Below are positions 1 to 40,556 of a stretch of 45,053 nucleotides of DNA, in pieces (positions within the stretch are counted from its first letter, which is position 1; each line of letters begins with the position of its first letter). The position numbers and the translations under genes are program-made. Source of the DNA: Escherichia phage Msk; the sequence record MW057918, one strand, 5' to 3'. The notes under the pieces are model-generated. The model saw nothing but the letters and a program-made list of their open reading frames with translations, had not been told where the DNA came from and made no database searches.

Positions 1-150
1 TATAGCGAGAGAAGGTCTTAGCTTTAAACTTGGTGGTGATGATATATTTCCAGGTCAAGAATACGGTTGTCGTTGCTGGTCAGTTCCTGATTGGGAATCA
101 TAATGTGAGGATAAACGATGAATTTGATGGCTTTTAGTGAGGAGAATTAA

Positions 151-1236
151 ATGAGTAAAATCCGCTATGACAGCGCAAAGTTTAAGGCAACAATCGACGA
201 GAATGGATTCTTAGTCGATACACCAGTAGTCGCACGTCTAGGTGTGCAAGTCTACTACATGGAGGACGGTCGCACTGTTCGAGAGTTTCGCCCAGCAGAG
301 GAGGTTTTCAAGGATGAATCACTCTCCAGCTACCAGGGTAAGCCAATGACTCTGGATCATGTTTTCGTTAACTCAGAGAACGCTAAAGAGGTAGTGGTAG
401 GTTCCGTTACTGGCAAAGCTGAGCCATTGGGTAGCTCAGTGGTTGCTCCGATTGTTGTTTACGATAACACAGCCATTCAGGAAGCTATGGCAGGTAACGC
501 CAAGGAGTTATCCGTTGGTTACTCTGCAATTCTTGACGAAACCCCTGGCTGGGGTGACCCTATTACTGGTGAGTACGTACTTAAATCTGATGGTGATCAA
601 TTCGATGCGCCAGATGGTTGGCAGGAGTTCGACGCAATTCAGCGTGACATTAAAGTGAACCATCTCGCAATGGTGTATCGAGGTAGGGCAGGTATTGCCA
701 AATTGAATATGGACGGTGAGCAGGAAAACCCGTATACTACTGACGTTGATATCAATAAAGAGGATAAACAGGAAATGATTAAGATTAAACTCGACGGCGC
801 GCAGGAATTTGAGGTTGCCCCGGAAATCGCTTCTCACATCGAAGCACTGAACGCAAAGGCTGACACCGCAATCGCTGAGCGCGATGCACTGAAAGCTAAA
901 GTTGATGCAATGCCTGCTGAAATTGAGGCCGCAGTTGCTAAAGCGAAAGCTGACGCTGATGCCCTGGCGGCTCTGGTAGCTGTTGCCGCTGAAGCTGGTG
1001 TCAAGGCTGACGGCCTGGATGCTAAAGGCATTAAAGTGGCTTACGTTAAAGAAATCTCCGGCCTTGATGTTGGCGAGAAGTCTGACGCGTACATCGACGC
1101 AGCGTTCGACATTGCCAAAGAATCTGATAAAATGGCTGAAGTACGTAGAGCGACTACCGCTTCCGACAAATCTGACAGCGCCGTAGAGCCTAAGAAATTA
1201 GACCCGCGTGCTCGTTTAGCTAAAATTAAGAAATAA
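151..1236 (+). CDS. Prohead protease/scaffolding-like protein with Ala/Lys-rich coiled-coil C-terminus
   Basis: 361-aa ORF directly upstream of decoration-like and major capsid genes; C-terminal third is low-complexity AEAKA-rich as in scaffold proteins; position in head module. Confidence 0.45.
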   Translation: MSKIRYDSAKFKATIDENGFLVDTPVVARLGVQVYYMEDGRTVREFRPAEEVFKDESLSSYQGKPMTLDHVFVNSENAKEVVVGSVTGKAEPLGSSVVAPIVVYDNTAIQEAMAGNAKELSVGYSAILDETPGWGDPITGEYVLKSDGDQFDAPDGWQEFDAIQRDIKVNHLAMVYRGRAGIAKLNMDGEQENPYTTDVDINKEDKQEMIKIKLDGAQEFEVAPEIASHIEALNAKADTAIAERDALKAKVDAMPAEIEAAVAKAKADADALAALVAVAAEAGVKADGLDAKGIKVAYVKEISGLDVGEKSDAYIDAAFDIAKESDKMAEVRRATTASDKSDSAVEPKKLDPRARLAKIKK

Positions 1237-1247
1237 GGAGTTATAAC

Positions 1248-1466
1248 ATGGCAATTCGTTCCGTAGCACTGGCTGGTATGGTTTCTGATACCTCTCTGTA
1301 CAACATCGATGGCGCTTGTGTAGTTGGCGGCGCAGCAGCCATTCCGGTTGGCACTTTTGTTGGCGTTACATCCGCTCAGCCTGTAGATGGTCACAAGGTT
1401 GTTGGACTCCCAGTCGTAACTGGCTCGGCAGTTAAACCTTATGGTGTTGTTGTTAAATCTCAATAA
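1248..1466 (+). CDS. Head decoration-like small Gly/Val-rich protein, N-terminal segment (same frame as 1512-1757, separated by a TAA)
   Basis: Strong SD AAGGAG 8 nt upstream of ATG; Gly/Val/Ala-rich beta-type composition; located between scaffold and capsid genes. Confidence 0.45.
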   Translation: MAIRSVALAGMVSDTSLYNIDGACVVGGAAAIPVGTFVGVTSAQPVDGHKVVGLPVVTGSAVKPYGVVVKSQ

Positions 1467-1511
1467 GAGACTCCAGATGGCACAGCTCGCGTAAATGAAG
1501 CGGTTAACGTA

Positions 1512-1757
1512 ATGACACATGGTCGAGTCTGGGTTCGTACAAATCTAGCGGCTGCGCCAGCTTTTGGTGGCAAGGTTTTTGTAAACGCGAGTGGCGTTGT
1601 TGTCGCAGAAGCGGCAGGTGCTACTTGGGAGACTGGTTTTACATTTGCTGGTGGTTACATTAAAAACACGAGCACAGACCCGCAAGACCTAAGCGTTGAT
1701 GGCGCACTAGTTGAAGTTCAGCTTATTCAATCCGCAGGCTCAACTGTTGCAGCTTAA
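1512..1757 (+). CDS. Head decoration-like protein, C-terminal segment (possibly continuous with 1248-1466)
   Basis: Same reading frame as 1248-1466 with a single intervening TAA at 1464-1466; no convincing SD of its own; followed by strong terminator. Confidence 0.35.
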   Translation: MTHGRVWVRTNLAAAPAFGGKVFVNASGVVVAEAAGATWETGFTFAGGYIKNTSTDPQDLSVDGALVEVQLIQSAGSTVAA

Positions 1758-1774
1758 TAATTAAGATATATAAA

Positions 1775-1797
1775 GCCTCCTTCGGGAGGTTTTTTTA
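1775..1797 (+). terminator. Rho-independent terminator (CCUCC-UUCG-GGAGG hairpin plus U-run)
   Basis: aagcctccttcgggaggttttttt seen directly. Confidence 0.7.
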
Positions 1798-1803
1798 TGT
1801 CAT

Positions 1804-1831
1804 TGCGTGGGCTAAAAACTCGTGTATAATG
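1804..1831 (+). promoter_or_regulatory. Sigma70-like promoter upstream of major capsid gene (-35 TTGCGT, 16-bp spacer, -10 TATAAT)
   Basis: ttgcgtgggctaaaaactcgtgtataat; consensus-like hexamers at canonical spacing. Confidence 0.5.
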
Positions 1832-1868
1832 AATACGTAAACACATAACTGAAAAGGAACAATAAAGA

Positions 1869-2813
1869 ATGGCCATTAAATTTGATGCAGAACAAGCAAA
1901 AATCACCGCTCACCTCGAGCAAATGGGCGTAGAAAAAGCTGATGCCGCTGGTATCTGGACCGTTAGCCAGCTCACCGCTGCTCTGAACCGTGCTTACGAA
2001 AAAGAATACGCAGAAAACTCAGTTGTTAATATCTTCCCTGTAACAAATGAAATTCCTGGTCACGCGAAGTATTTCGAATACCCAGAGTTTGATGGTGTTG
2101 GCATTGCTCAGATTATCGCTGACTACTCTGACGATCTGCCGCTGGTTGATGCGTTTATGACCGAGAAACAAGGCAAAGTGTTCCGTTTCGGTAACGCATT
2201 CCTGATTTCTACCGATGAAATTAAAGCGGGTGCTGCAACTGGTCAGTCTCTGTCAACTCGCAAGCAGGCATTGGCTTTCGAAGCGCACGATAACTTGCTG
2301 GATAAACTGGTGTGGTCTGGTTCCACTCCTCACGGTATCGTAAGTGTATTCGATCAACCGAACATCAACAACGTTGTTGCCACTCCAAACTGGAGCGTCG
2401 CGCAGAACGCGATTAATGACGTCACTGCGATGATTGATGCGGTTGAGAGCTCAACCCAGGGCCTACATCATGTAACTGACATTCTGCTTCCAGCTTCCGC
2501 TCGTCGAGTGATGCAGGGACTGGTTCCGCAGACAAACCTGAGTTACGGCGAATTGTTCACTCGTAACAACCCGGGTCTGACCATTCGCTTTATGCAGTTC
2601 CTGGACAACTACGATGGCGCAGGTGGCAAGGCTGCTCTGGCGTTTGAAAAGAATCCACTCAATATGTCTATTGAGATTCCAGAAGCTACTAACGTACTTC
2701 CTGGGCAGCCCAAGGACTTGCACTTTAAGTACCCTGTAACATCAAAGGCGACGGGTTTGATCGTTTATCGTCCACTGACGATGGCTGTAATGAAAGGTAT
2801 CACCTTCGCGTAA
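1869..2813 (+). CDS. Major capsid protein
   Basis: 314-aa ORF after scaffold/decoration genes, own promoter and strong terminators on both sides; size and position typical of HK97-fold MCP; not verified by homology search. Confidence 0.55.
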   Translation: MAIKFDAEQAKITAHLEQMGVEKADAAGIWTVSQLTAALNRAYEKEYAENSVVNIFPVTNEIPGHAKYFEYPEFDGVGIAQIIADYSDDLPLVDAFMTEKQGKVFRFGNAFLISTDEIKAGAATGQSLSTRKQALAFEAHDNLLDKLVWSGSTPHGIVSVFDQPNINNVVATPNWSVAQNAINDVTAMIDAVESSTQGLHHVTDILLPASARRVMQGLVPQTNLSYGELFTRNNPGLTIRFMQFLDNYDGAGGKAALAFEKNPLNMSIEIPEATNVLPGQPKDLHFKYPVTSKATGLIVYRPLTMAVMKGITFA

Positions 2814-5577: not shown

Positions 5578-5826
5578 ATGAATAACGTTAAAAACATCAT
5601 CAAACTTGCTGCAGTTCTTGTTGCTTTTTATGCAGTAGTTCAGATTGTTAACCCAACTGGCGAGGCTGATGCCAATAGCAAGGCAAACAAATATACCGTT
5701 GAGTTCGCTAAAGCTGAGCGAGCATGCCAGGAGCTTGTGGGTAGTAAAGTTGACCAAATCATGAAATATGGCAAAGAGGTCTGCAAGGACTCAGCTGCTA
5801 AGATTGCAAAAGAAAACACTAAGTAA
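5578..5826 (+). CDS. Small secreted/membrane protein with N-terminal hydrophobic segment
   Basis: 82 aa; hydrophobic N-terminus KLAAVLVAFYAVVQIV; own motif-class promoter inside tail cluster. Confidence 0.4.
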   Translation: MNNVKNIIKLAAVLVAFYAVVQIVNPTGEADANSKANKYTVEFAKAERACQELVGSKVDQIMKYGKEVCKDSAAKIAKENTK

Positions 5827-17473: not shown

Positions 17474-17511
17474 TTTCTATCTCTCTCTTCGTGTTTTTGA
17501 TGTGGTAATAA

Positions 17512-17553
17512 TACAGCCGCCGCTGCGGAATGTCTTTAGCTATTCGTGCTATT
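17512..17553 (-). promoter_or_regulatory. Motif-class promoter (variant AATAGCACGAATAGCTAA) for methyltransferase gene
   Basis: Variant motif at 17536-17553 on minus strand, tattat about 23 bp downstream. Confidence 0.4.
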
Positions 17554-17610
17554 GTATACGCGTAATCGATGTAACTCGATGTATACAATTTCATCCGCGG
17601 AAAATGGTAT

Positions 17611-17706
17611 ACGCGCTGTTACGCCAATTTACGCATTAGTTACATTGAAATATCTATATATATCAACCTTTTACTCTTATTATTATTATTATACATATTA
17701 CTGTGT
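17611..17706. repeat. AT-rich intergenic block with (TTA)n microsatellite; homologous to 36971-37073
   Basis: tatctatatatatcaacc...ttattattattatta shared with second locus; several GTATAC palindromes nearby. Confidence 0.6.
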
Positions 17707-17947
17707 ATATCATGTAACTACTTCTATAGAGCGTTCCGGTTATAATTTTAATATCATGTGGATTTATACAGTATTGCGTGGCAGCTATACTAATGCACCC
17801 CCTGCAAGAAACGGTATACACGATATACACGATGGTTACATTTAGCTATAGCTGGGATGAGATGCCATTTTACGTAACAAGTGGCAATGCCTACACGGAA
17901 TTACAATGATTCGCACGTAAACTTAAATCAACGATTGGCAAAACCAA

Positions 17948-17975
17948 TTGGACTGGTTACCGTGCTGAATATATA
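17948..17975 (+). promoter_or_regulatory. Sigma70-like early promoter (-35 TTGGAC, 16-bp spacer, -10 TATATA) for plus-strand operon starting at 18015
   Basis: Hexamers at canonical spacing about 40 bp upstream of first ATG. Confidence 0.4.
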
Positions 17976-18014
17976 GTTAACCCATCTAAAGCAAACAACC
18001 AGAGAGATACAGAA

Positions 18015-20566: not shown

Positions 20567-23015
20567 AATAAATTTTTACATCTGGAGAAATTCCAACGCA
20601 AGTCCAGCGCGAGAACTTGGCATCATAAACGAATGACATTCCAATTTGTCTCCCCTCAGATGGAGTTGTGAATGAGCCAACTCTAAACTTATTGCTAAAT
20701 GAAACGGATGGACGCCGGCCGCCTGAAAGGTTGTAAATTATGAAGTCTATCCTCTGTGCATCTCTTGCGTTATCCTGAACATCAATAACTACAGGACTTG
20801 AATCAATTACAACGGTTGCAAGACTTGTTCTTAGTGGGTTAAATAGAATACTACCACCAGATAGCTGAACCCTTTTTTGAACGGGGTTAGAAGAATCCGT
20901 GTACAACCCTGTGTTTATATTATACAAAGCCTCCCATGAATTCAGTTTTGAGTCATCAATCACTGTTGCATACTGCCCAAATAGTATAGTCCCTTCTACA
21001 TGGTTTCCTGAAGCTCCATTATAAAAATCAAAACCAGAAGCTGATCCACCAACAAACCTATTAGCTCTAGCTCCGTTAACTTGAATTGATGGAGACTGAA
21101 AACCTGACTTCAGGCCATTGAACAAGTTTCCTGTCGCCGTCTTCCTAAGAACGACGTCACCACCAGAGTTGACCTCAAGGTCGCAACCAATAACAGTGTT
21201 AGTTACTGCTGTTATGCCTAGGTCTGACTCATGACCGAAAGAAAACCCATACTTATTTCCCTCGCTGGTTCCACCAATAAATGTCGTATTACTGCAGAAT
21301 GTAGCCTCAATTCCTGATTCTGTTACATGCTCGCAAGTTGGGTTAATAAAAAGATCTGCAGATGTGCCGCGGAAGTTCACAGCGCCAGCCTCTGCGTCAA
21401 TTAATATGCCGTACGTAGGCGTCGTTGTGAAGGTCTCAACGTTACCAGAGCACACAAAGTTATTATGCACGCATAGCTGAGTCCACCAGCAGTGTAAACC
21501 AGCCCTTCTAATGTTCGTAGCCATTAGGTTGTCAAAGCATGATGATATGACACCCCTTAATGAAAAGCCATCACTAGCATACCCATTCCCATCGACAATG
21601 ATGTTGCTCATATATGAGTTGTATGCCCAATAATCTAGGTTTACATCCCTATGATCCATTTGGATGACGTAATCATGAGGTCCGCTAGTTAGTGAGATTC
21701 TTGCGCCTTTCTCACCGATAATTGTTGCTGGCCTCAGAAAGTTTAATGGCTGAGATGTAAGATAATTACCTTTAGGAATATGTATAGCAATAGCGTTGTT
21801 TCTAGATGCCTCAACAGCGGCAAGCAATGCCTGAGTATCATCTGTTACACCATCACCAACAGCGCCAAAGTCCTTCTTAATATCGACATGAGTAAGTAAA
21901 GCGTTTACCTCTGGCTTTGAGTAAACATCAAGATTTGTTCTTGCTGCTGACTTATTTGCAACATCAGAGAAATTCAATGATTTTTGAAAAGTCTCATTTT
22001 TTGAATAAACATCAAGATTTGTTCTTGCTGCTGACTTATTTGCAACATCAGAGAAATTCAATGATTTTTGAAAAGTCTCATTTTTTGAATAAACATCAAG
22101 TAAGTTTCTAGCCCTCGATGCCGTAGCTCCACCTCCGGACTTGCCAGCCTCAACCATCACCATTTCCCTACCTGGTGCATAAACCCTGCTTCCGGGCGCT
22201 CCCACAAACTGAATGTAAATCTCCCTGCTATACTGGTTGCTTGTTGAAGATTGGCCTACAACTCGCAAGGAGTGCGTGGTTGTATTGCTTGACTTTGATA
22301 TTACCTGAATGCATAAAGCAGCAATTGATGTTCCAAATGTTGAGATTATGTCATTTGGAGCATTTATCATTGATGAAACGTTAACCATATAAAGGCCACC
22401 GGATTTAAAAACAAATTCCTGCCAATCAAAATTGCTTATCAATGGCGTAGTGTCTGTCGCCAATCCATATCCGGCAAGAGTTACCAACGTTCCGGCATCC
22501 CCGGCGTTATTAATTGCTTTAATCGTCTGATCTCTTGCTGCAGTGGTCGTGTCTCTTGCACTAATAGCAGTAGCGGCGCTCTCTTCGGCAGCAATCTGGC
22601 TAGCAAGAGCCTCAGCAGCTCCAGTGGTGGATTGTTTTGCAAGCTGCTCGAAGAGAGGCCAGTCGAAAGTGTCTTGACCAATAAATTGCAACAATCCTTC
22701 GATTGATGTCTCCTTTGACTGGTAGTAACGCAAAGTCTCTGCTACATCCTGAGCCAACCCCTGAACGGTAATTCCATCGTGCGCAAGAATTGCATAACCA
22801 GTTCCGGAAGGAACAGTTTCAGAGTTAGGGTTGTAAACATTAATCTGAGTATCGCTGATGATTTCAGAGATGGTATAAATCTTCAGGGGGCTGGTTTTAA
22901 AAATAATGGTTGCACCTACGCGAATAAGTGTAAGCGGTGCTTTCCATGTTGTACCCACGCCAGTTACCTCGCCATTTGCGGCCAGCGACGCTGTTCCTAA
23001 GTCATAAATTGCCAT
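20565..23015 (-). CDS. Tailspike with pectate-lyase-type beta-helix (putative polysaccharide depolymerase)
   Basis: ATG at 23015 with GGAGAA SD; DFGAVGDGVTDDTQAL signature of pectate_lyase_3-type tailspikes; internal perfect 28-aa tandem repeat. Confidence 0.7.
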   Translation of the reverse strand: MAIYDLGTASLAANGEVTGVGTTWKAPLTLIRVGATIIFKTSPLKIYTISEIISDTQINVYNPNSETVPSGTGYAILAHDGITVQGLAQDVAETLRYYQSKETSIEGLLQFIGQDTFDWPLFEQLAKQSTTGAAEALASQIAAEESAATAISARDTTTAARDQTIKAINNAGDAGTLVTLAGYGLATDTTPLISNFDWQEFVFKSGGLYMVNVSSMINAPNDIISTFGTSIAALCIQVISKSSNTTTHSLRVVGQSSTSNQYSREIYIQFVGAPGSRVYAPGREMVMVEAGKSGGGATASRARNLLDVYSKNETFQKSLNFSDVANKSAARTNLDVYSKNETFQKSLNFSDVANKSAARTNLDVYSKPEVNALLTHVDIKKDFGAVGDGVTDDTQALLAAVEASRNNAIAIHIPKGNYLTSQPLNFLRPATIIGEKGARISLTSGPHDYVIQMDHRDVNLDYWAYNSYMSNIIVDGNGYASDGFSLRGVISSCFDNLMATNIRRAGLHCWWTQLCVHNNFVCSGNVETFTTTPTYGILIDAEAGAVNFRGTSADLFINPTCEHVTESGIEATFCSNTTFIGGTSEGNKYGFSFGHESDLGITAVTNTVIGCDLEVNSGGDVVLRKTATGNLFNGLKSGFQSPSIQVNGARANRFVGGSASGFDFYNGASGNHVEGTILFGQYATVIDDSKLNSWEALYNINTGLYTDSSNPVQKRVQLSGGSILFNPLRTSLATVVIDSSPVVIDVQDNARDAQRIDFIIYNLSGGRRPSVSFSNKFRVGSFTTPSEGRQIGMSFVYDAKFSRWTCVGISPDVKIY
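21923..22100. repeat. Perfect 84-bp tandem duplication (2 copies plus 10-bp partial) inside tailspike coding sequence
   Basis: Identical 84-bp units at 21923-22006 and 22007-22090 seen directly. Confidence 0.85.
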
Positions 23016-24062: not shown

Positions 24063-24102
24063 ACAATGTATAGCGCCACTGTTTATCAATTCGTGCTATT
24101 TC
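24063..24102 (-). promoter_or_regulatory. Motif-class promoter (variant AAATAGCACGAATTGATAAA, 22 bp, TATAGT) for primase
   Basis: Motif at 24086-24102 minus strand, hexamer 22 bp downstream. Confidence 0.4.
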
Positions 24103-24578
24103 CCTTGCTCTTTAGCTTTTCGCGCTGCCTCGTTAGCGGCCTTAATCTTGCGCCATGATCGACACTCTGTCTTGGTGGCTAATTCAGCCTCAGTAACAAC
24201 ACGCAGCATGTGACGCTTTTTGCAACGAAGAGTTAGCGGCTTCCCGTTACCGTCGAATTGCAAATCTGGTCGGCAGAATGTGGCGCGAAAACCTTCTCCA
24301 TTTCGCTTGTAGTAGTTGTGCGACAGCTGGGCGCCACGTGCCGATATCATGCCGCGCTTAAACCATTGTTCTACAGCCTGTGGTGTTACCTTTAACTGCT
24401 TTGCGATATTCGCCTTTGTGCCGAAGAAATCAAGAACTATCTCCAGGCGTGCCCGTAACCCTGCTCTTACTTCATCCTTTAAAACGTAGTAACCTGAAGG
24501 TCGTTTACGTTGCTTTTTGTCTTCAGTGCGGATAGTTCCGTTGTTGCCGTTAATGGTTCTCTTGTCGACTGTATTCAT
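24096..24578 (-). CDS. Putative HTH DNA-binding regulator (Cro/YdaS-like) with basic C-terminus
   Basis: TKANIAKQLKVTPQAVEQWFKRG helix-turn-helix-like segment; divergent from helicase gene. Confidence 0.45.
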   Translation of the reverse strand: MNTVDKRTINGNNGTIRTEDKKQRKRPSGYYVLKDEVRAGLRARLEIVLDFFGTKANIAKQLKVTPQAVEQWFKRGMISARGAQLSHNYYKRNGEGFRATFCRPDLQFDGNGKPLTLRCKKRHMLRVVTEAELATKTECRSWRKIKAANEAARKAKEQGK

Positions 24579-26674: not shown

Positions 26675-27090
26675 ATATTACAGACAAAGTTGATTACATT
26701 GAGTTTTACCCGGGCCCGGTTAAGTCATGTCCTAAAGAGGATGACGAACAAATCTTTTGTTCTGATTGGGTTAAGTATAACTACCCGGATATGGTATTTT
26801 TCCACTGCGTGAATGAGGGTAAGAAAACCATTGGTCAAGCAAGAAAGGACCAGGCTAAAGGATTGCTTAAAGGGGTTTCGGACTGCTTATTCCTTATACC
26901 TGAATCACTGCGAGGCAAATACCCATTTGGCGCTATAGAGCTAAAGAGAGCAGGTAAAACGCAAGCTAGCCCAGTTAGCGATGAGCAGAAGTCATTCCTA
27001 AAAAGCGTAAGAGAATCAGGTGGCTTCTCCGCAGTAGCCTATGGCAGAGGTGGCTTTCTTGCAGCATTCGCAGAGATGATTCGAAAATAG
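26671..27090 (+). CDS. VRR-NUC domain nuclease
   Basis: GAIELKRAGKTQASPVSDEQKSFL pattern typical of VRR-NUC; overlaps helicase stop. Confidence 0.6.
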   Translation: MNITDKVDYIEFYPGPVKSCPKEDDEQIFCSDWVKYNYPDMVFFHCVNEGKKTIGQARKDQAKGLLKGVSDCLFLIPESLRGKYPFGAIELKRAGKTQASPVSDEQKSFLKSVRESGGFSAVAYGRGGFLAAFAEMIRK

Positions 27091-27133
27091 CACGAATTGC
27101 TAAAGACGAATCGGTGAGGTGGTGTATTATCAA
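27085..27133 (+). promoter_or_regulatory. Motif-class promoter copy 1 of duplicated block
   Basis: aaatagcacgaattgctaaag, 22 bp, tattat, leader catcgaaacgaaa. Confidence 0.45.
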
Positions 27134-27166
27134 CTCATCGAAACGAAACACTCACAAAAAAGGTGA

Positions 27167-27266
27167 GAAGTTGCAAACGTAGGCCGGAGCAACGAAAGAC
27201 GTTTCAAAATATGATGTGACAAACCCATGAGAAAGGAAGTTGCAAACGTAGGCCGGAGCAACGAAA
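27167..27266. repeat. Two direct copies of 31-bp element gaagttgcaaacgtaggccggagcaacgaaa (27167-27197, 27236-27266)
   Basis: Exact direct repeat 69 bp apart in a non-coding region; contains gttgc/gcaac inverted repeat. Confidence 0.8.
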
Positions 27267-27294
27267 ATCACATCATAATAAATTATAACTTAGT

Positions 27295-27343
27295 AAATAG
27301 CACGAATTGCTAAAGAGGAATCGGTGAGGTGGTGTATTATCAC
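27295..27343 (+). promoter_or_regulatory. Motif-class promoter copy 2 of duplicated block, driving 27377
   Basis: Near-identical to 27085-27150 (aaatagcacgaattgctaaag...tattatca...catcgaaacga). Confidence 0.5.
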
Positions 27344-27376
27344 TTCATCGAAACGAGACGCAGAGAGAGAAATAAA

Positions 27377-28646: not shown

Positions 28647-29777
28647 ATGGCAGTAGCAAAGATTACCAACGAGCAGCTTATCGAAGAGTTGAAAAATGGC
28701 ATGACTAACAAGGCGATTGCAGAGAAGTATGGCATGAACATTCGCAACGTCGAGCTTCGTCGCAGCAAGTTGGCTAAGAGTGGAGTTGGGCATGGTAATG
28801 AGGGTATCAATAAGCTAGTACCGGATGGATATTTAGTCAAGGGCACTTCAACCATGATTGATGCGGAAGGGAATGAGAAGCTGCGCTGGGTTAAGACGAG
28901 CGTTGATAATGAGCGCCTTGAGGTTTTAATGGAGCAAGCTCGAGAAGCGTTTTGCTCTGAGTTGCCAAAGGCAGATTCGGTCAACCACTCAGGTAATGAG
29001 GTCAATTCTGAATTAATGACTCTTTACCCGATTTTCGATATCCATATCGGCATGATGGCTCATCGACATGAGTCTGGTGAAAATTATGACACGAACACAG
29101 CAGAGAAATTGATGGGGTCATATTTTGACCATGCAATTTCTGTATCACCAGCCTCGGAGAAAGCCGTGATTTTAGTTGGCGGCGACTTCCTTCACTCTGA
29201 TGGACTGGAGGCTGTAACCCCAGCAAGCGGACACTGCCTTGATCAAGATAGTCGATATGCCAAGTTAGTTTATGTAGCAATTCGATCAATTCGCGGTGCG
29301 GTAGAGAAGATGCTTAAGAAACACAAGGAGGTCGAGATTCAAATCATAGAGGGCAATCATGATCAAAGTGGTATGATTTGGCTTCGCGCTGCAATGGCTG
29401 CATTTTATGAAAGAGAGAGTCGAGTGTTTGTTGATACCAGTCCGGCAATCATGCACAAGACGCGATTTGGCTCAACATTACTTGGTTACACGCACGGTCA
29501 CACGATGAAGAAAGCCGAGGGTCGACTAGCAGCAATGGCGACCGACTACCGCAAAGACTTTGGTGAATGTGAGTTTGTTTACTGCCACTCCGGCCATTTC
29601 CATCATGCAACTGTTACAGAGTGCACTCTTGGGATTGATGAAGTCCACCCTGCACTTGCTAGCAAGGATGCATATGCGGCACGGGGAGGGTGGAGATCAT
29701 ATCGACAAGCGGCTGCAATTATTTACCACAAGAATTTTGGCGAGGTTGGTCGACACATTTATCGCCCAGGTATGTAA
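28647..29777 (+). CDS. HTH domain fused to calcineurin-like metallophosphoesterase
   Basis: N-terminal MTNKAIAEKYGMNIRNVELRR HTH-like; MPP motifs DIHIG, GGDFLHSD, EGNHD, GYTHGH, GHFH. Confidence 0.6.
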   Translation: MAVAKITNEQLIEELKNGMTNKAIAEKYGMNIRNVELRRSKLAKSGVGHGNEGINKLVPDGYLVKGTSTMIDAEGNEKLRWVKTSVDNERLEVLMEQAREAFCSELPKADSVNHSGNEVNSELMTLYPIFDIHIGMMAHRHESGENYDTNTAEKLMGSYFDHAISVSPASEKAVILVGGDFLHSDGLEAVTPASGHCLDQDSRYAKLVYVAIRSIRGAVEKMLKKHKEVEIQIIEGNHDQSGMIWLRAAMAAFYERESRVFVDTSPAIMHKTRFGSTLLGYTHGHTMKKAEGRLAAMATDYRKDFGECEFVYCHSGHFHHATVTECTLGIDEVHPALASKDAYAARGGWRSYRQAAAIIYHKNFGEVGRHIYRPGM

Positions 29778-33101: not shown

Positions 33102-34685
33102 TCACCCCAGCAGTCGTGGATTAATGTAAACTTTATCACCAATCAGGCACGTATAGTTTTTCTCATCAAGCATTGGTAGTAAGTGGTCTTTAATCTTCGT
33201 CATTACTCCCGCTTGACCCTCGAACGGCTTAACCTTGCGAGCAGCTTCATATAGAGACCGGATGCCTACTACGCCTTTCCCATTTTTTACTTGCTTAATC
33301 AGAATATCAATCAGCTTATTCATCTCTGCATTGTCGCCAGCGTGACCCGCAGCGTTGGCAGATGACAAATAAGTCTTGCTAAGTTCCTGGAACATAATTA
33401 CAGCTTCCTGCATTGTATCAAGCTCAATTTCTCTCGACTTCTGAGGGCTACCGCCATTTGGGTTGAACCAGTTACGCACAGTGTGAAGAACCGCCGCAAT
33501 CCTGATTGCCTGCTTATCGAACTTACCCAACGCGCCTCGCAACATTGTGTGTGAATACTTCCCGCCGTCAGCAAGGTGCGGTTCCATTTCCTGACGAGCG
33601 CGGTTGAGATATTTCATTGCTGAATTACTAACTGTCAACTTAACTTCTTGCTCATTCATTATCTCGTGAACTAAACGGAAGTAATCAGCCTTCAACCCGG
33701 CATCAATTGGCTCATAAGTCGATTCGCCATTTTCATCAACGAATACACGCTCGCCCAGGAGTGACTTTTCACGTACAAGCAGGAAACGCTCAGATACACC
33801 GATACCACGCGCGCCAGCGTTCATGATAGCGTTGATTGTCTCATCCTGCGCAATTACAGAGATGCAACCCATAGCTACGAAGCTCATGTTGTTTTCAGCG
33901 TTAGCACGAGCGATAGATACGTTGCCAGCATCCCATGCCTTCAGTACAAGCTCGCTGTTCGTTTTCTTTGATCCGTCACCATAGGTCATGCCAAGTAGTG
34001 AGTTTACACTCGTTGCCTCATCCGAGATTACTGCAAAGTTACCCTGACGATTGTTTATTCGCGCAAGACCTTCCGGTGTGGTATCTGAAACCGGGAAAAC
34101 GATATCGCATAGTTTCTCGAGCTTTTCCTCAAGATCTTCTTTCTCCTCAAAAAGCGATTTCATCTCAGATGGTGACTTTTCCTGCTTCATCTCTTTGGAT
34201 AACGCAGATAGTTTAGCCATAATCTTTTTGCGCTCGCGCTTTCGAACTTCATTCAGTCGCTGAGTCTCGGCAATCATTGGCGCAATAGAAAGTGAGTTAA
34301 TTGCTGATTTACCAGTCGATGGTGGCTGACTCGTTACGACGTAAAGCGAGGTTGGCTGCTGAGTTCCGTGATACTCTACGGTAAAACGTCCAAGCATGGC
34401 AGCGGAAATACACCCCAGGAAGTGCATGTATGCGGACGACTCCGGGAATTGCACGCTCCGAGCAATGTTAGCTGACAGCTTACCAACAACATCAATATCA
34501 TTTCCGAGTGATATTACAGGGTACTTATCATTTGCCGCATCAATCTCGACAGGAGCCTTCCAGAATGATTGAGACTGGCGATAGCCATTTGCATTAATAG
34601 CGACGCGCAAAGGTGGAAGGTTGTCTGCGGCAGCAATTGCCATAACCTGTTCAACAGATAGTTTATCTTCGTTGAAATCAAACAT
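33102..34685 (-). CDS. P-loop NTPase of unknown function (possible replication-associated ATPase, DUF3987-like)
   Basis: Walker A-like SQPPSTGKSA and Walker B-like FAVISDEATS; N- and C-terminal segments duplicated in pseudogene 37864-38283. Confidence 0.4.
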   Translation of the reverse strand: MFDFNEDKLSVEQVMAIAAADNLPPLRVAINANGYRQSQSFWKAPVEIDAANDKYPVISLGNDIDVVGKLSANIARSVQFPESSAYMHFLGCISAAMLGRFTVEYHGTQQPTSLYVVTSQPPSTGKSAINSLSIAPMIAETQRLNEVRKRERKKIMAKLSALSKEMKQEKSPSEMKSLFEEKEDLEEKLEKLCDIVFPVSDTTPEGLARINNRQGNFAVISDEATSVNSLLGMTYGDGSKKTNSELVLKAWDAGNVSIARANAENNMSFVAMGCISVIAQDETINAIMNAGARGIGVSERFLLVREKSLLGERVFVDENGESTYEPIDAGLKADYFRLVHEIMNEQEVKLTVSNSAMKYLNRARQEMEPHLADGGKYSHTMLRGALGKFDKQAIRIAAVLHTVRNWFNPNGGSPQKSREIELDTMQEAVIMFQELSKTYLSSANAAGHAGDNAEMNKLIDILIKQVKNGKGVVGIRSLYEAARKVKPFEGQAGVMTKIKDHLLPMLDEKNYTCLIGDKVYINPRLLG

Positions 34686-36450: not shown

Positions 36451-36461
36451 ATCTCAATCCT

Positions 36462-36640
36462 CAAATAAATGGTAGGCATTCGGCGCATCCAAGTCCATCA
36501 CAGCACAGGAATTCATCCTCTGACTGGAATTGCTTAGCCAAATATATGTCTAACTTTCCGCGCAACACAAGGTCGGTGTAATCTTCGTTAAGCTCAATCA
36601 GTGCGCAATCGTGGCGCAATTCATCTTTATCAATCTTCAT
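36462..36640 (-). CDS. Hypothetical small Cys-rich protein
   Basis: 59-aa ORF translated by eye with CCDGLGCAEC segment. Confidence 0.3.
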
Positions 36641-36970
36641 ATCTATACCCTCGTTGTTGGTGAGTTAACTATAGCCTCGCCACCAGCACATGTCTTTAGC
36701 AAAAAGTGCTATTCATTAGATTTATGTATTGTTGCATATATTGCAATGATTCACATGATTATTGCACATACAGCAATATTGCTTCAGATGCAATGATGTT
36801 TTTGATTGTTGCGGATTGAGCAATTAAGTGGTGAGTGAGTGAATGAAAGATGGATGGACTACCATACAAGTTGATTTTGATTCTTGCTAAGCTACTTTCA
36901 CGCATACACGTTATAAAAGTTATGCCGTGTAGATGCGCCAGCTCCCCGTTGGAATCATGTACGTCTATCA

Positions 36971-37073
36971 CGCTAAATTACGCAATGGTTACATAATAAT
37001 ATCTATATATATCAACCATTTAGTACTATTATTATTATTATTATTATATACGCGTATATAATGTATATAGTGG
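36971..37073. repeat. AT-rich intergenic block with (TTA)6-7 microsatellite and TATACGCGTATA palindrome; homologous to 17611-17706
   Basis: Shared tatctatatatatcaacc-(tta)n block; palindrome atatacgcgtatat seen directly. Confidence 0.6.
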
Positions 37074-37342
37074 ATATTGGATATTGCGATAGTTTTCTAT
37101 GATTTTTTCCTACAAGTGTAGGAATTGGATGACACTGTAGGAATAAATAGGCATATATGGGCCAATGCTCCATGAAAGCCGATGTACAAGCTATACGCAG
37201 TGGTTACATTGAGCTATATCTGGGGTTTGGAACTGAAAAGCGTAAATAAATTGAATTCAACCATAAATAACAATTGATAACATGTAACCTCAATGATACC
37301 ATGCACCCATCTTAACGAGAGCAACCAATCAGGAGTATATCT

Positions 37343-37864
37343 ATGTCAAATCGCATTCAACCAGTAAGCCTTGGTGATGTTATCCGCTACATGGCTAAGC
37401 AGGCACTTAAGGCCGACAACAGGACTTTTCATGCTCCAATCAATCTTATAGCTCGCCAGGTTTACGGGCTAACGTCTGATGATATGGGTCGAATCAGCGC
37501 TGAGGATCTAGATAGTGGTGGCAAATACAGCCTGGCAAAGCTGAAGGCTTCATATGTCTCTAACACGGTTGCCAGGATGCCAGAAATTCAGGCGGCGAAC
37601 GTTCGGGCTAAGCTGTCAATCAAGGACGGAGACTTCGGGGATGATGTTGATGTTCGATGCGCATACATCACCTTGGTTGATGGGGCAATACAAACGGGAA
37701 GGAGAGTTAAAGCCAACAATCAGATTGCACAGAATGCGGTGAACGACTTCAAGGATAGAATCCTTAAGCTGATGCCATCTGTGACAGATTTTGAAGGAGA
37801 TGAGATTACAGGAGCAATCAAAGCAATCAAGATGTACCAAGAAATGATTAAGGAGACAAAATAA
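37343..37864 (+). CDS. Hypothetical protein
   Basis: 173-aa ORF, first gene after large AT-rich intergenic region. Confidence 0.45.
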   Translation: MSNRIQPVSLGDVIRYMAKQALKADNRTFHAPINLIARQVYGLTSDDMGRISAEDLDSGGKYSLAKLKASYVSNTVARMPEIQAANVRAKLSIKDGDFGDDVDVRCAYITLVDGAIQTGRRVKANNQIAQNAVNDFKDRILKLMPSVTDFEGDEITGAIKAIKMYQEMIKETK

Positions 37865-40478: not shown

Positions 40479-40556
40479 GCTCCGCTAGCTCAATTGGATA
40501 GCAGCAACGACCTTCTAAGTCGTAGGTTACTGGTTCGAGGCCAGTGCGGAGCGCCA
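40479..40556 (+). tRNA. tRNA-Arg (anticodon UCU)
   Basis: Cloverleaf by eye: acceptor GCTCCGC/GCGGAGC, anticodon stem ACGAC/GTCGT with loop CTTCTAA, T-arm ACTGG-TTCGAGG-CCAGT, discriminator G and encoded CCA. Confidence 0.75.

Follow-up and report, generated by a model that had tools for sequence, protein, structure and literature searches.

Paired AT-rich modules of T1-like phages as candidate replication-origin-type elements

The DNA analysed (the window, 45,053 bases) is the complete genome of a T1-like siphovirus, referred to as OzMSK throughout. Two of its intergenic regions, locus 1 (17474-18014) and locus 2 (36641-37342), carry copies of the same AT-rich module. The module is duplicated within the genome, is conserved at the same two positions across the phage family, shows extreme helical instability and co-evolves with its partner copy within each genome. 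The shared blocks are devoid of coding, RNA or promoter signals, and the phage encodes a primase and a predicted MCM-like helicase. The preferred reading, tentative and given a probability of roughly 0.45, is that the module is a cis-acting element of the replication-origin type, present twice per genome and composed of an unwinding element and initiator-binding repeats. Protein binding, melting and initiation at the modules are what we infer.

Homology between the two copies was assessed by searching locus 2 against the whole genome with the low-complexity filter off. Locus 1 is the best non-self match of locus 2 in the OzMSK genome. The match consists of two collinear blocks: shared block 1, D5 (36965-37065 vs 17616-17716; 78% over 101 nt; E 1e-20), and shared block 2, D17 (37180-37224 vs 17812-17856; 80% over 45 nt; E 1.6e-6). 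A first-pass annotation, made by a model from the letters of the window, had proposed the homology of locus 2 to locus 1 and had named beforehand a pairwise alignment confined to AT-rich simple repeats as the result that would speak against it. The homology is borne out. The similarity extends beyond simple sequence, because an exact 19-mer, ATATCTATATATATCAACC, is found at both loci and nowhere else in the genome and because the non-repetitive flanks ACGC..TTACGC..GTTACAT and GTATAT.ATGTA align between the loci. The strings quoted in that annotation are present, including the 69-nt string at 36978-37046, and the AT-rich non-coding gap is real, with an extent of 36641-37342 (702 bp). To it are added shared block 2, a pac-proximal segment on the left and, where each locus begins on its left side, a promoter with the 21-nt box. 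The features of the module are given below in window positions, with the strand where one applies.

36965..37065, plus strand: shared block 1 (D5), paralogue of 17616-17716
36960..36994, plus strand: phased short repeats (TACGTC, CACGC, TACGC, GGTTACAT) with a TAC/CAC core every 9-11 bp, directly left of the AT core
36990..37049: AT-rich core, candidate DNA-unwinding element; 88% A+T, z = 5.1
37010..37022, plus strand: TATCAACCATTTA, exact match to the IHF core consensus WATCAANNNNTTR, AT tract upstream; within the AT core
37029..37046, plus strand: (TTA)6 microsatellite inside the AT core
37043..37062: perfect 20-bp palindrome ATTATATACGCGTATATAAT, lineage-specific
37071..37148: variable spacer, with TGGATATTGGATATT (37071-37085), the hairpin CCTACAAGTGTAGG (37109-37122) and TGTAGGAAT twice (37117, 37136)
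37180..37224, plus strand: shared block 2 (D17), paralogue of 17812-17856; second phased array TGTACAAGC, TATACGCAG, TGGTTACAT
17616..17856, plus strand: partner module of locus 1 (D5, 17616-17716; D17, 17812-17856)
Contents of D5 at locus 1, plus strand: AT core, 17641-17700; IHF core, 17661-17673; (TTA)5, 17677-17691

The array of shared block 2 ends in GGTTACAT and is followed by the near-palindrome AGCTATATCT and GGGG. At locus 1, GTTACA is found at 17639 and an inverted copy at 17713. The phased repeats with a TAC/CAC core are kept at both loci in OzMSK, Rtp and JulesPiccard. Two short words are enriched over the two loci: GTTACA (7 observed vs 0.64 expected) and TACGC (10 vs 1.5). The IHF core has three exact matches genome-wide, two of which are in the two blocks (37010-37022 and 17661-17673); each OzMSK block holds a predicted IHF site that matches the consensus. 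The sequence aTTACgcaatGGTTACATAaT (36976-36997) resembles what we take to be the OmpR F1 site of ompF, TTTACTTTTGGTTACATATT, with a half-site spacing of 11 vs 10 bp; this resemblance forms no part of the evidence.

The cores are the least stable (locus 2, z = 5.1) and second least stable (locus 1, z = 4.5) 60-bp duplexes of the OzMSK genome, and this top-two rank holds for windows of 40, 60, 100 and 200 bp (z = 3.4-5.1). Six complete genomes representing four Drexlerviridae subfamilies were compared (OzMSK, JulesPiccard, Rtp, Rogue1, T1 and TLS). The two cores are the two least stable duplexes in all six (z 4.3-5.9, vs at most 3.8 for third place). A wider sample was obtained from 68 RecE-anchored loci taken from viral contigs and from those 48 gp09-anchored loci whose upstream sequence was long enough. 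In 63 of the 68, the least stable 60-mer of ~13 kb is less than 1 kb upstream of recE (chance, ~8%), with a stereotyped core offset (median -352 from recE; z 4.84 vs 2.92). It lies 1.6-5.6 kb upstream of gp09, i.e. at the locus-2 position, in 48 of 48. The same two-locus arrangement was found in every T1-like genome examined, which answers the comparison of relatives suggested in the first-pass annotation. No copy of the shared block was found outside T1-like phages in 72,556 plasmids or in 5,426 E. coli genomes. The single match in a bacterial assembly is an exact copy of the 24-nt core at 5664-5687 of NZ_VSMK01000220.1 (L021; 46,669 bp), a contig of T1-like genome length in a Nitratidesulfovibrio liaohensis assembly; it is most likely a contaminating coliphage contig in that assembly.

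The locus-1 block is almost invariant across ~10 Braunvirinae-type phages, and the D5-D17 stretch is far better conserved between OzMSK and its closest relative, FP, than the adjacent left segment. The IHF core is retained in 17 of 18 block copies of Braunvirinae type and is not present in Rogue1, T1 or TLS; IHF as a family-wide function was rejected, its core consensus being confined to Braunvirinae. The TTA run is longer at locus 2 than at locus 1 (6 units vs 5), as had been claimed, and its copy number varies among relatives as slippage would give (4-7 units at locus 2; 5-6 at locus 1; identical in FP). The palindrome is indeed perfect, and longer than first described, but neither it, which figures in the title of the first-pass annotation, nor the direct repeat is among the conserved features. 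The 20-mer is perfect in OzMSK and FP only, is imperfect (CGTG) in JulesPiccard and L015 and is not found at locus 1; it is lineage-specific and probably incidental, and was rejected as the key feature. The TGGATATT repeat is likewise lineage-specific and not conserved. The spacer (37071-37148) is conserved at locus 2 of JulesPiccard and Rogue1, is replaced by unrelated sequence in Rtp, where TGGATATTGGATATT is missing, and is not found at locus 1. Nor is a divergent strand switch the defining context: the locus-1 module of TLS (28707-29117) lies between two plus-strand genes, tspJ and recE. What stands of the earlier proposal of a duplicated regulatory or origin-like element is that the module is a true duplicate and that both copies are constrained; its two functional terms correspond to the two leading explanations weighed below.

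The two copies co-evolve within genomes. In each genome searched, locus 2 finds its best non-self match in locus 1 (E 1e-20 to 3e-35). Among 19 non-redundant genomes with both loci captured, the median core-to-core score is 59 within genomes, 20 between genomes and 11 for shuffled sequences; the own partner core ranks first in 10 of these genomes and among the top three in 15.

The repeats that flank the core differ by lineage. GTTACA is found in five phages (Braunvirinae, Rogue1, T1), TGGGACA and TCTTACC in other clades; in TLS, GTTCAC/GTGAACA replaces GTTACA at both loci, and TLS-like phages have GTTCAC/GAACA. GTTCAC, like GTTACA and TACGC, shows locus-specific enrichment. These repeats are short (6-7 bp) and degenerate, and are putative initiator sites. 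In 7 of the 19 genomes, vs 7% of mismatched controls, one hexamer stands to the left of the core and its complement to the right, and the two loci share this hexamer. In 5-8 of 22 genomes, vs 0-2 for other windows, a hexamer from the left flank is found again 140-260 bp downstream, at both loci. Similarity of the locus-1 flank follows identity of gp09 (rho 0.74; partial 0.64 given RecE, P = 0.0003; 22 genomes), and is best tracked by the N-terminal 80 residues of gp09. The correlation with the neighbouring RecE (rho 0.56) is weaker than that with the distant gp09. The co-variation of gp09 and flank at locus 1 is suggestive only.

Coding, RNA and promoter signals were looked for in the loci. 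Two tiny coding sequences are annotated inside locus 2 in GenBank record PQ659294 (36850-36996 and 37157-37249). Internal stops or frameshifts are found at both places in JulesPiccard, L015, L011 and Rtp, so that the open reading frames are not conserved; they are probably spurious, and locus 2 is judged from these sequences to be effectively non-coding. A third small coding sequence of that record (17547-17846) overlaps the conserved non-coding block of locus 1 and may be spurious too. A scan of the whole window with Rfam covariance models gave a tRNA (40479-40553) alone, and nothing in either locus. Eight loci were scanned with a weight matrix for sigma70 promoters, and none with a conserved position was found in D5 or D17. 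The conserved promoters (37274-37302 and 36668-36696) fall outside the shared blocks, and a promoter within them was rejected for want of positional conservation.

Both cores are candidates for the unwinding element of origins built from iterons and a DNA-unwinding element (SPP1 oriL/oriR, lambda ori, iteron plasmids), and the genome has two sites with the same repeats and an AT-rich segment, as in dual origins of the SPP1 type. DnaA boxes (TTWTNCACA) are absent from both loci of the six phages; GATC is absent from locus 1 of all six and from both OzMSK loci. An oriC-like model based on DnaA and GATC was rejected, the boxes being absent. GC skew was rejected as an indicator of the origin, as it merely follows gene orientation.

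The phage encodes a primase (gp24) with the zinc ribbon of primase-helicases, a Cro-like helix-turn-helix protein (gp23), a DEAD-type helicase and gp09 (DUF3987). Of these, the primase and gp09 are replication proteins that need an origin. The gp09 gene (33102-34685, minus strand) is annotated as a 'putative ATPase'. Its AlphaFold model (predicted local distance difference test, pLDDT, 87.7; predicted template modelling score, pTM, 0.85) has a C-terminal alpha-beta-alpha-alpha-beta-beta winged helix at residues ~451-521. All 50 PDB matches listed by Foldseek are subunits of MCM replicative helicases (E down to 2e-6). From its modelled structure, the protein is predicted with high confidence to belong with the MCM-like AAA+ helicases and to carry the winged helix at its C terminus. 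Searches of PDB with the sequences of gp09, the primase and gp23 gave nothing significant. The T1 record annotates the primase as similar to alpha primases of the P4 family; the primase matches the N-terminal half of a 667-aa primase family. For the initiator there are candidates only, gp09 (best) and the Cro-like gp23 (alternative).

As an origin, each module would consist of the AT-rich core, phased lineage-specific short repeats beside it and a second repeat array ~200 bp downstream. A phage initiator would bind the flanking repeats; gp09, acting through its terminal domains, is the best candidate and gp23 the alternative. The AT core, the least stable duplex in the genome, would then melt. 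Melting may be aided by negative supercoiling behind a strong early promoter that lies ~280 bp downstream and fires away from the core; a divergent leftward promoter would add supercoiling in most phages, and bending by IHF within the core may assist in Braunvirinae. The helicase would be loaded, the phage primase gp24 would prime, and the host polymerase would elongate. Both copies could fire. Alternatively, as proposed for SPP1, one copy would start theta replication, and the copy beside recE-erf-ssb would stall forks and thus lead to recombination-dependent concatemer synthesis. A more elaborate version is unlikely. It describes archaeal-like dual origins, with the MCM-like gp09 loaded on an AT element between short recognition repeats; one would lie inside the terminal repeat by pac and the other upstream of recE-erf-ssb, early transcription from the immediate-early promoter ahead of each would open both by supercoiling, and theta initiation and the recombination-dependent synthesis of concatemers that feeds headful packaging would be split between the copies.

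The closest known arrangement is that of SPP1. This phage has two origins with the same direct repeats and AT-rich unwinding element; one is the site of initiation, and for the other it has been proposed that stalled forks trigger recombination-dependent replication there (PMC6316719). The likeness to oriL/oriR of SPP1 extends to lifestyle, since SPP1 is a virulent pac-type headful siphovirus of ~44 kb, and to the recombination functions: 5'-3' exonuclease, annealing recombinase, SSB and junction nuclease in SPP1; RecE, Erf, SSB and VRR-NUC in OzMSK. The differences are the following. There is no sequence homology, and the gp38 initiator and the DnaB-type gp40 helicase of SPP1 are unrelated to the T1-like proteins. 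oriL lies within the initiator gene, whereas both T1-like modules are found between genes, upstream of early promoters. For SPP1, binding and initiation in vitro are experimentally established, whereas the T1-like modules are known from their sequences. The satellite phage P4 has two cis-acting regions, ori and crr, which are kilobases apart and carry the same short iterons. Its alpha protein fuses primase, superfamily 3 (SF3) helicase and iteron binding, whereas T1-like phages have a separate primase and a helicase with a predicted MCM-like structure. The type I iteron of P4, which we take to be TGTTCACC, contains the TLS-type GTTCAC; it is not used as evidence. Archaeal origins have an AT-rich unwinding element between inverted origin-recognition boxes and load MCM. 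The 7 of 19 genomes with inverted short repeats about the core resemble them, as does gp09, predicted from structural similarity only to be MCM-like. However, no Orc1/Cdc6-like protein was seen in the phage, none having been searched for, and the inverted layout is not universal and is missing at OzMSK locus 2. In the lambda ori, phased repeats lie beside AT-rich DNA, and activation is dependent on transcription close by; this origin differs in being a single origin inside the initiator gene O, with four iterons of 18-19 bp.

Three further features of locus 2 and the copies of a repeated box lie outside the shared blocks.

37274..37302, plus strand: rightward sigma70-type promoter TTGATA-17-TACCAT with TG extension, for the operon from 37343; score 12.4
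36668..36713, minus strand: leftward promoter of the T1-like 21-nt direct repeat class, box AATAGCACTTTTTGCTAAAGA at 36693-36713
36727..36850: conserved non-coding segment, locus 2 only, candidate pac; inverted arms 36732-36747 / 36778-36793
Starts of the 21-nt box: 16778, 17533, 19178, 23038, 24080, 27086, 27296, 30865, 34740, 35853, 36693, 38623, 39669

Orthologues of the rightward promoter score 13.2 in JulesPiccard, 10.8 in Rtp and 11.7 in T1 (TTGACA). At locus 1, a promoter that scores at least 12 is found at ~ -70 from recE in 35 of 69 loci, and the recE promoter is the best plus-strand match of the 13-kb locus in 24 loci; in OzMSK the locus-1 promoter is at 17935-17977. Each module has an early sigma70-type promoter ~250-300 bp downstream, in the same orientation. 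The TLS authors independently predict an equivalent rightward promoter, P01, and three consensus promoters only, two of them at these loci. In the leftward promoter of locus 2, the box is followed by a -35-like AAGACA, 17 nt and TATAGT ending at 36668. This box (36693-36713, minus strand) differs from the OzMSK consensus at 3 positions, which places it in the class, and is upstream of the minus-strand gene 36461-36640. Its counterpart at locus 1 is at 17508-17553 (box, 17533-17553).

The 21-nt box AATAGCACGAATTGCTAAAGA is present in 13-14 copies per genome, in the non-structural half only and always oriented with transcription. Within it is the dyad TAGCA-N5-TGCTA; after it come a -35-like AAGAC(A) and, 17 nt further on, TATTAT/TATAGT. 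The consensus aaATAGCACnnnTTGnTAAAA was reported for phage TLS (DR1-DR18), where its function is listed as open (PMC11447400). One copy of the TLS 21-nt repeat is found in each locus, but the repeat is an element separate from the shared AT-rich block; it contains GC and has promoter-like -35/-10 sequences downstream. The Cro-like helix-turn-helix protein (24096-24578, minus strand) is the natural candidate for its reader.

The segment at 36727-36850 contains ATTGTTGC (36728, 36805) and TGCAATGAT (36742, 36789), and these motifs occur in T1 exactly at the start of the terminal repeat. The T1 record gives this repeat as 1..2800, and T1 base 1 aligns inside the segment. The OzMSK, Rtp and Rogue1 records all open there, those of Rtp and OzMSK at the homologous base (window 36772). 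The SU57 paper puts the T1 pac site in this untranslated region. PhageTerm assigned no termini for OzMSK and gave several possible ends for SU57. The genome ends of T1 and TLS map by homology to 36727-36850; the shared block is ~215 bp away, and locus 1 has no such association. The segment is a candidate pac region, separate from the shared block.

Several observations weigh against an origin. Binding and initiation are predicted from sequence features, with candidates only for the initiator. Host-type initiation is excluded because DnaA boxes and GATC clusters are absent, so the origin would have to rest on a phage function. The strict inverted layout of the flanks is found in 7 of the 19 genomes only, and OzMSK locus 2 lacks it. 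Co-variation gives mixed evidence: at locus 2 the flank shows a poor correlation with gp09 (rho 0.40; 22 genomes), gp09 may just be a good proxy for phylogeny, and a five-genome test of domain divergence for the repeat reader was uninformative. The stereotyped distance and orientation of the modules upstream of early promoters suit a transcriptional role equally well, and AT-rich, TATA-rich DNA is also typical of regions upstream of promoters. The modules could accordingly be far-upstream control regions of two immediate-early rightward operons, the small early genes past locus 2 and recE-erf-ssb past locus 1, at whose AT-rich, bendable DNA and repeat arrays a regulator of host or phage origin, IHF in the case of Braunvirinae, would bind and boost, time or shut off the sigma70 promoters; two copies would then reflect two co-regulated operons. 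This explanation, the main competitor, is possible but on balance doubtful. It draws on the strength and co-orientation of the promoters (12.4 at locus 2; at least 12 in 35 of 69 at locus 1), on the independent prediction, by the TLS authors, of two of their three consensus promoters at these loci, on the stereotyped spacing from core to gene start (median -352), on the position of the second array roughly 100-150 bp upstream of the promoter, and on the IHF core kept in 17 of 18 Braunvirinae copies. However, the core is ~250-300 bp from the promoter, beyond the usual reach of an UP element or a class I/II activator; the distance from second array to promoter is unequal between the loci (about -110 vs -140 to -155); and no IHF core is found outside Braunvirinae. 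A regulator site need not be among the two most unstable duplexes of every genome, and the co-variation of the locus-1 flank is with a replication helicase rather than with the gene under its supposed control.

Less likely still, and altogether improbable, is a role in packaging. TerS sites near pac, similar to lambda cosB or to P1 pac with IHF, would make locus 1 a secondary or decoy site. The locus-2 core is indeed ~215 bp from the T1 terminal repeat and the TLS pac start, inside the terminal redundancy; the TLS pac position was mapped by restriction fragments, hence approximately, and the PhageTerm results quoted above, no termini for OzMSK and several ends for SU57, leave room for it. An equally conserved second copy, 19 kb away beside recE, does not fit a headful scheme with a single pac, and one pac fragment is reported in the restriction analysis of TLS. 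Flank similarity does not track the N-terminal region of TerS (residues 12-50; rho 0.30; partial 0.13; P = 0.19), and the motifs common with the T1 genome end (GATTGTTGC, TGCAATGAT) are in the separate segment 36727-36850, which is specific to locus 2. That the modules have no specific function and are AT-rich filler, a relic duplication or generic H-NS/Fis-binding DNA is very improbable. AT-rich sequence does accumulate in non-coding DNA, and clearly neither the palindrome nor the TGGATATT repeat nor the spacer is conserved. Conservation argues strongly against it: the modules are at the same two positions in four subfamilies (63/68 and 48/48 loci), the locus-1 block is nearly invariant over ~10 Braunvirinae phages, D5-D17 is far better kept than the left segment between OzMSK and FP, and the copies co-evolve within genomes.

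T1, among the seven classical T phages, is notorious as a contaminant of laboratories and fermentations; to our knowledge its replication origin has never been located. No transcriptomic or origin-mapping data for any T1-like phage were found in the searchable literature. Origin-type (iteron) repeats were looked for and not found in the 2024 reannotation of TLS, which lists basic questions of replication and regulation as open (PMC11447400); the origin of Sfin-1 was guessed from GC skew only. In the accessible papers on T1-like phages the paired modules are not described. The 21-nt repeats were already known from TLS, whereas the paired AT modules are the first concrete candidates for T1-family origins or early-gene control sites. 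They amount to two precise family-wide candidate sites of ~100 bp each, with a candidate helicase that the structural model places in the unexpected MCM-like class, and they make the location of the T1 origin directly testable. If the modules are origins, T1-like phages could be engineered or disabled through them, and a bacterial virus would serve as a model of how MCM is loaded; if they control early promoters, a switch would be defined for two immediate-early operons.

GenBank record PQ659294.1 (vB_ecoS_OzMSK) is a rotated version of the window, record base 1 being window base 36772. The nearest named relatives of OzMSK are vB_EcoS_FP and JulesPiccard (Drexlerviridae, Braunvirinae). Locus 2 is bounded on the left by the start of a minus-strand 59-aa gene (36461-36640), which belongs to an arm of small genes that reads leftward (the side of T1 gp1-gp10; it includes the gp09 helicase), and on the right by the plus-strand gene at 37343, in the rightward arm of small genes toward terminase. 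At locus 1, a DNA methylase gene reads leftward on one side and the recE-erf-ssb operon rightward on the other. Other duplications are present in the window. The gap after the VRR-NUC gene holds a ~210-bp duplication of a 21-nt-box promoter region (27080-27149 vs 27290-27359, 91%), inside which a stretch of 45 nt is itself repeated (27167-27211 / 27236-27280). An 84-bp tandem duplication with copies 99% identical (21916-22083) lies within a minus-strand tailspike-like gene of 826 aa.

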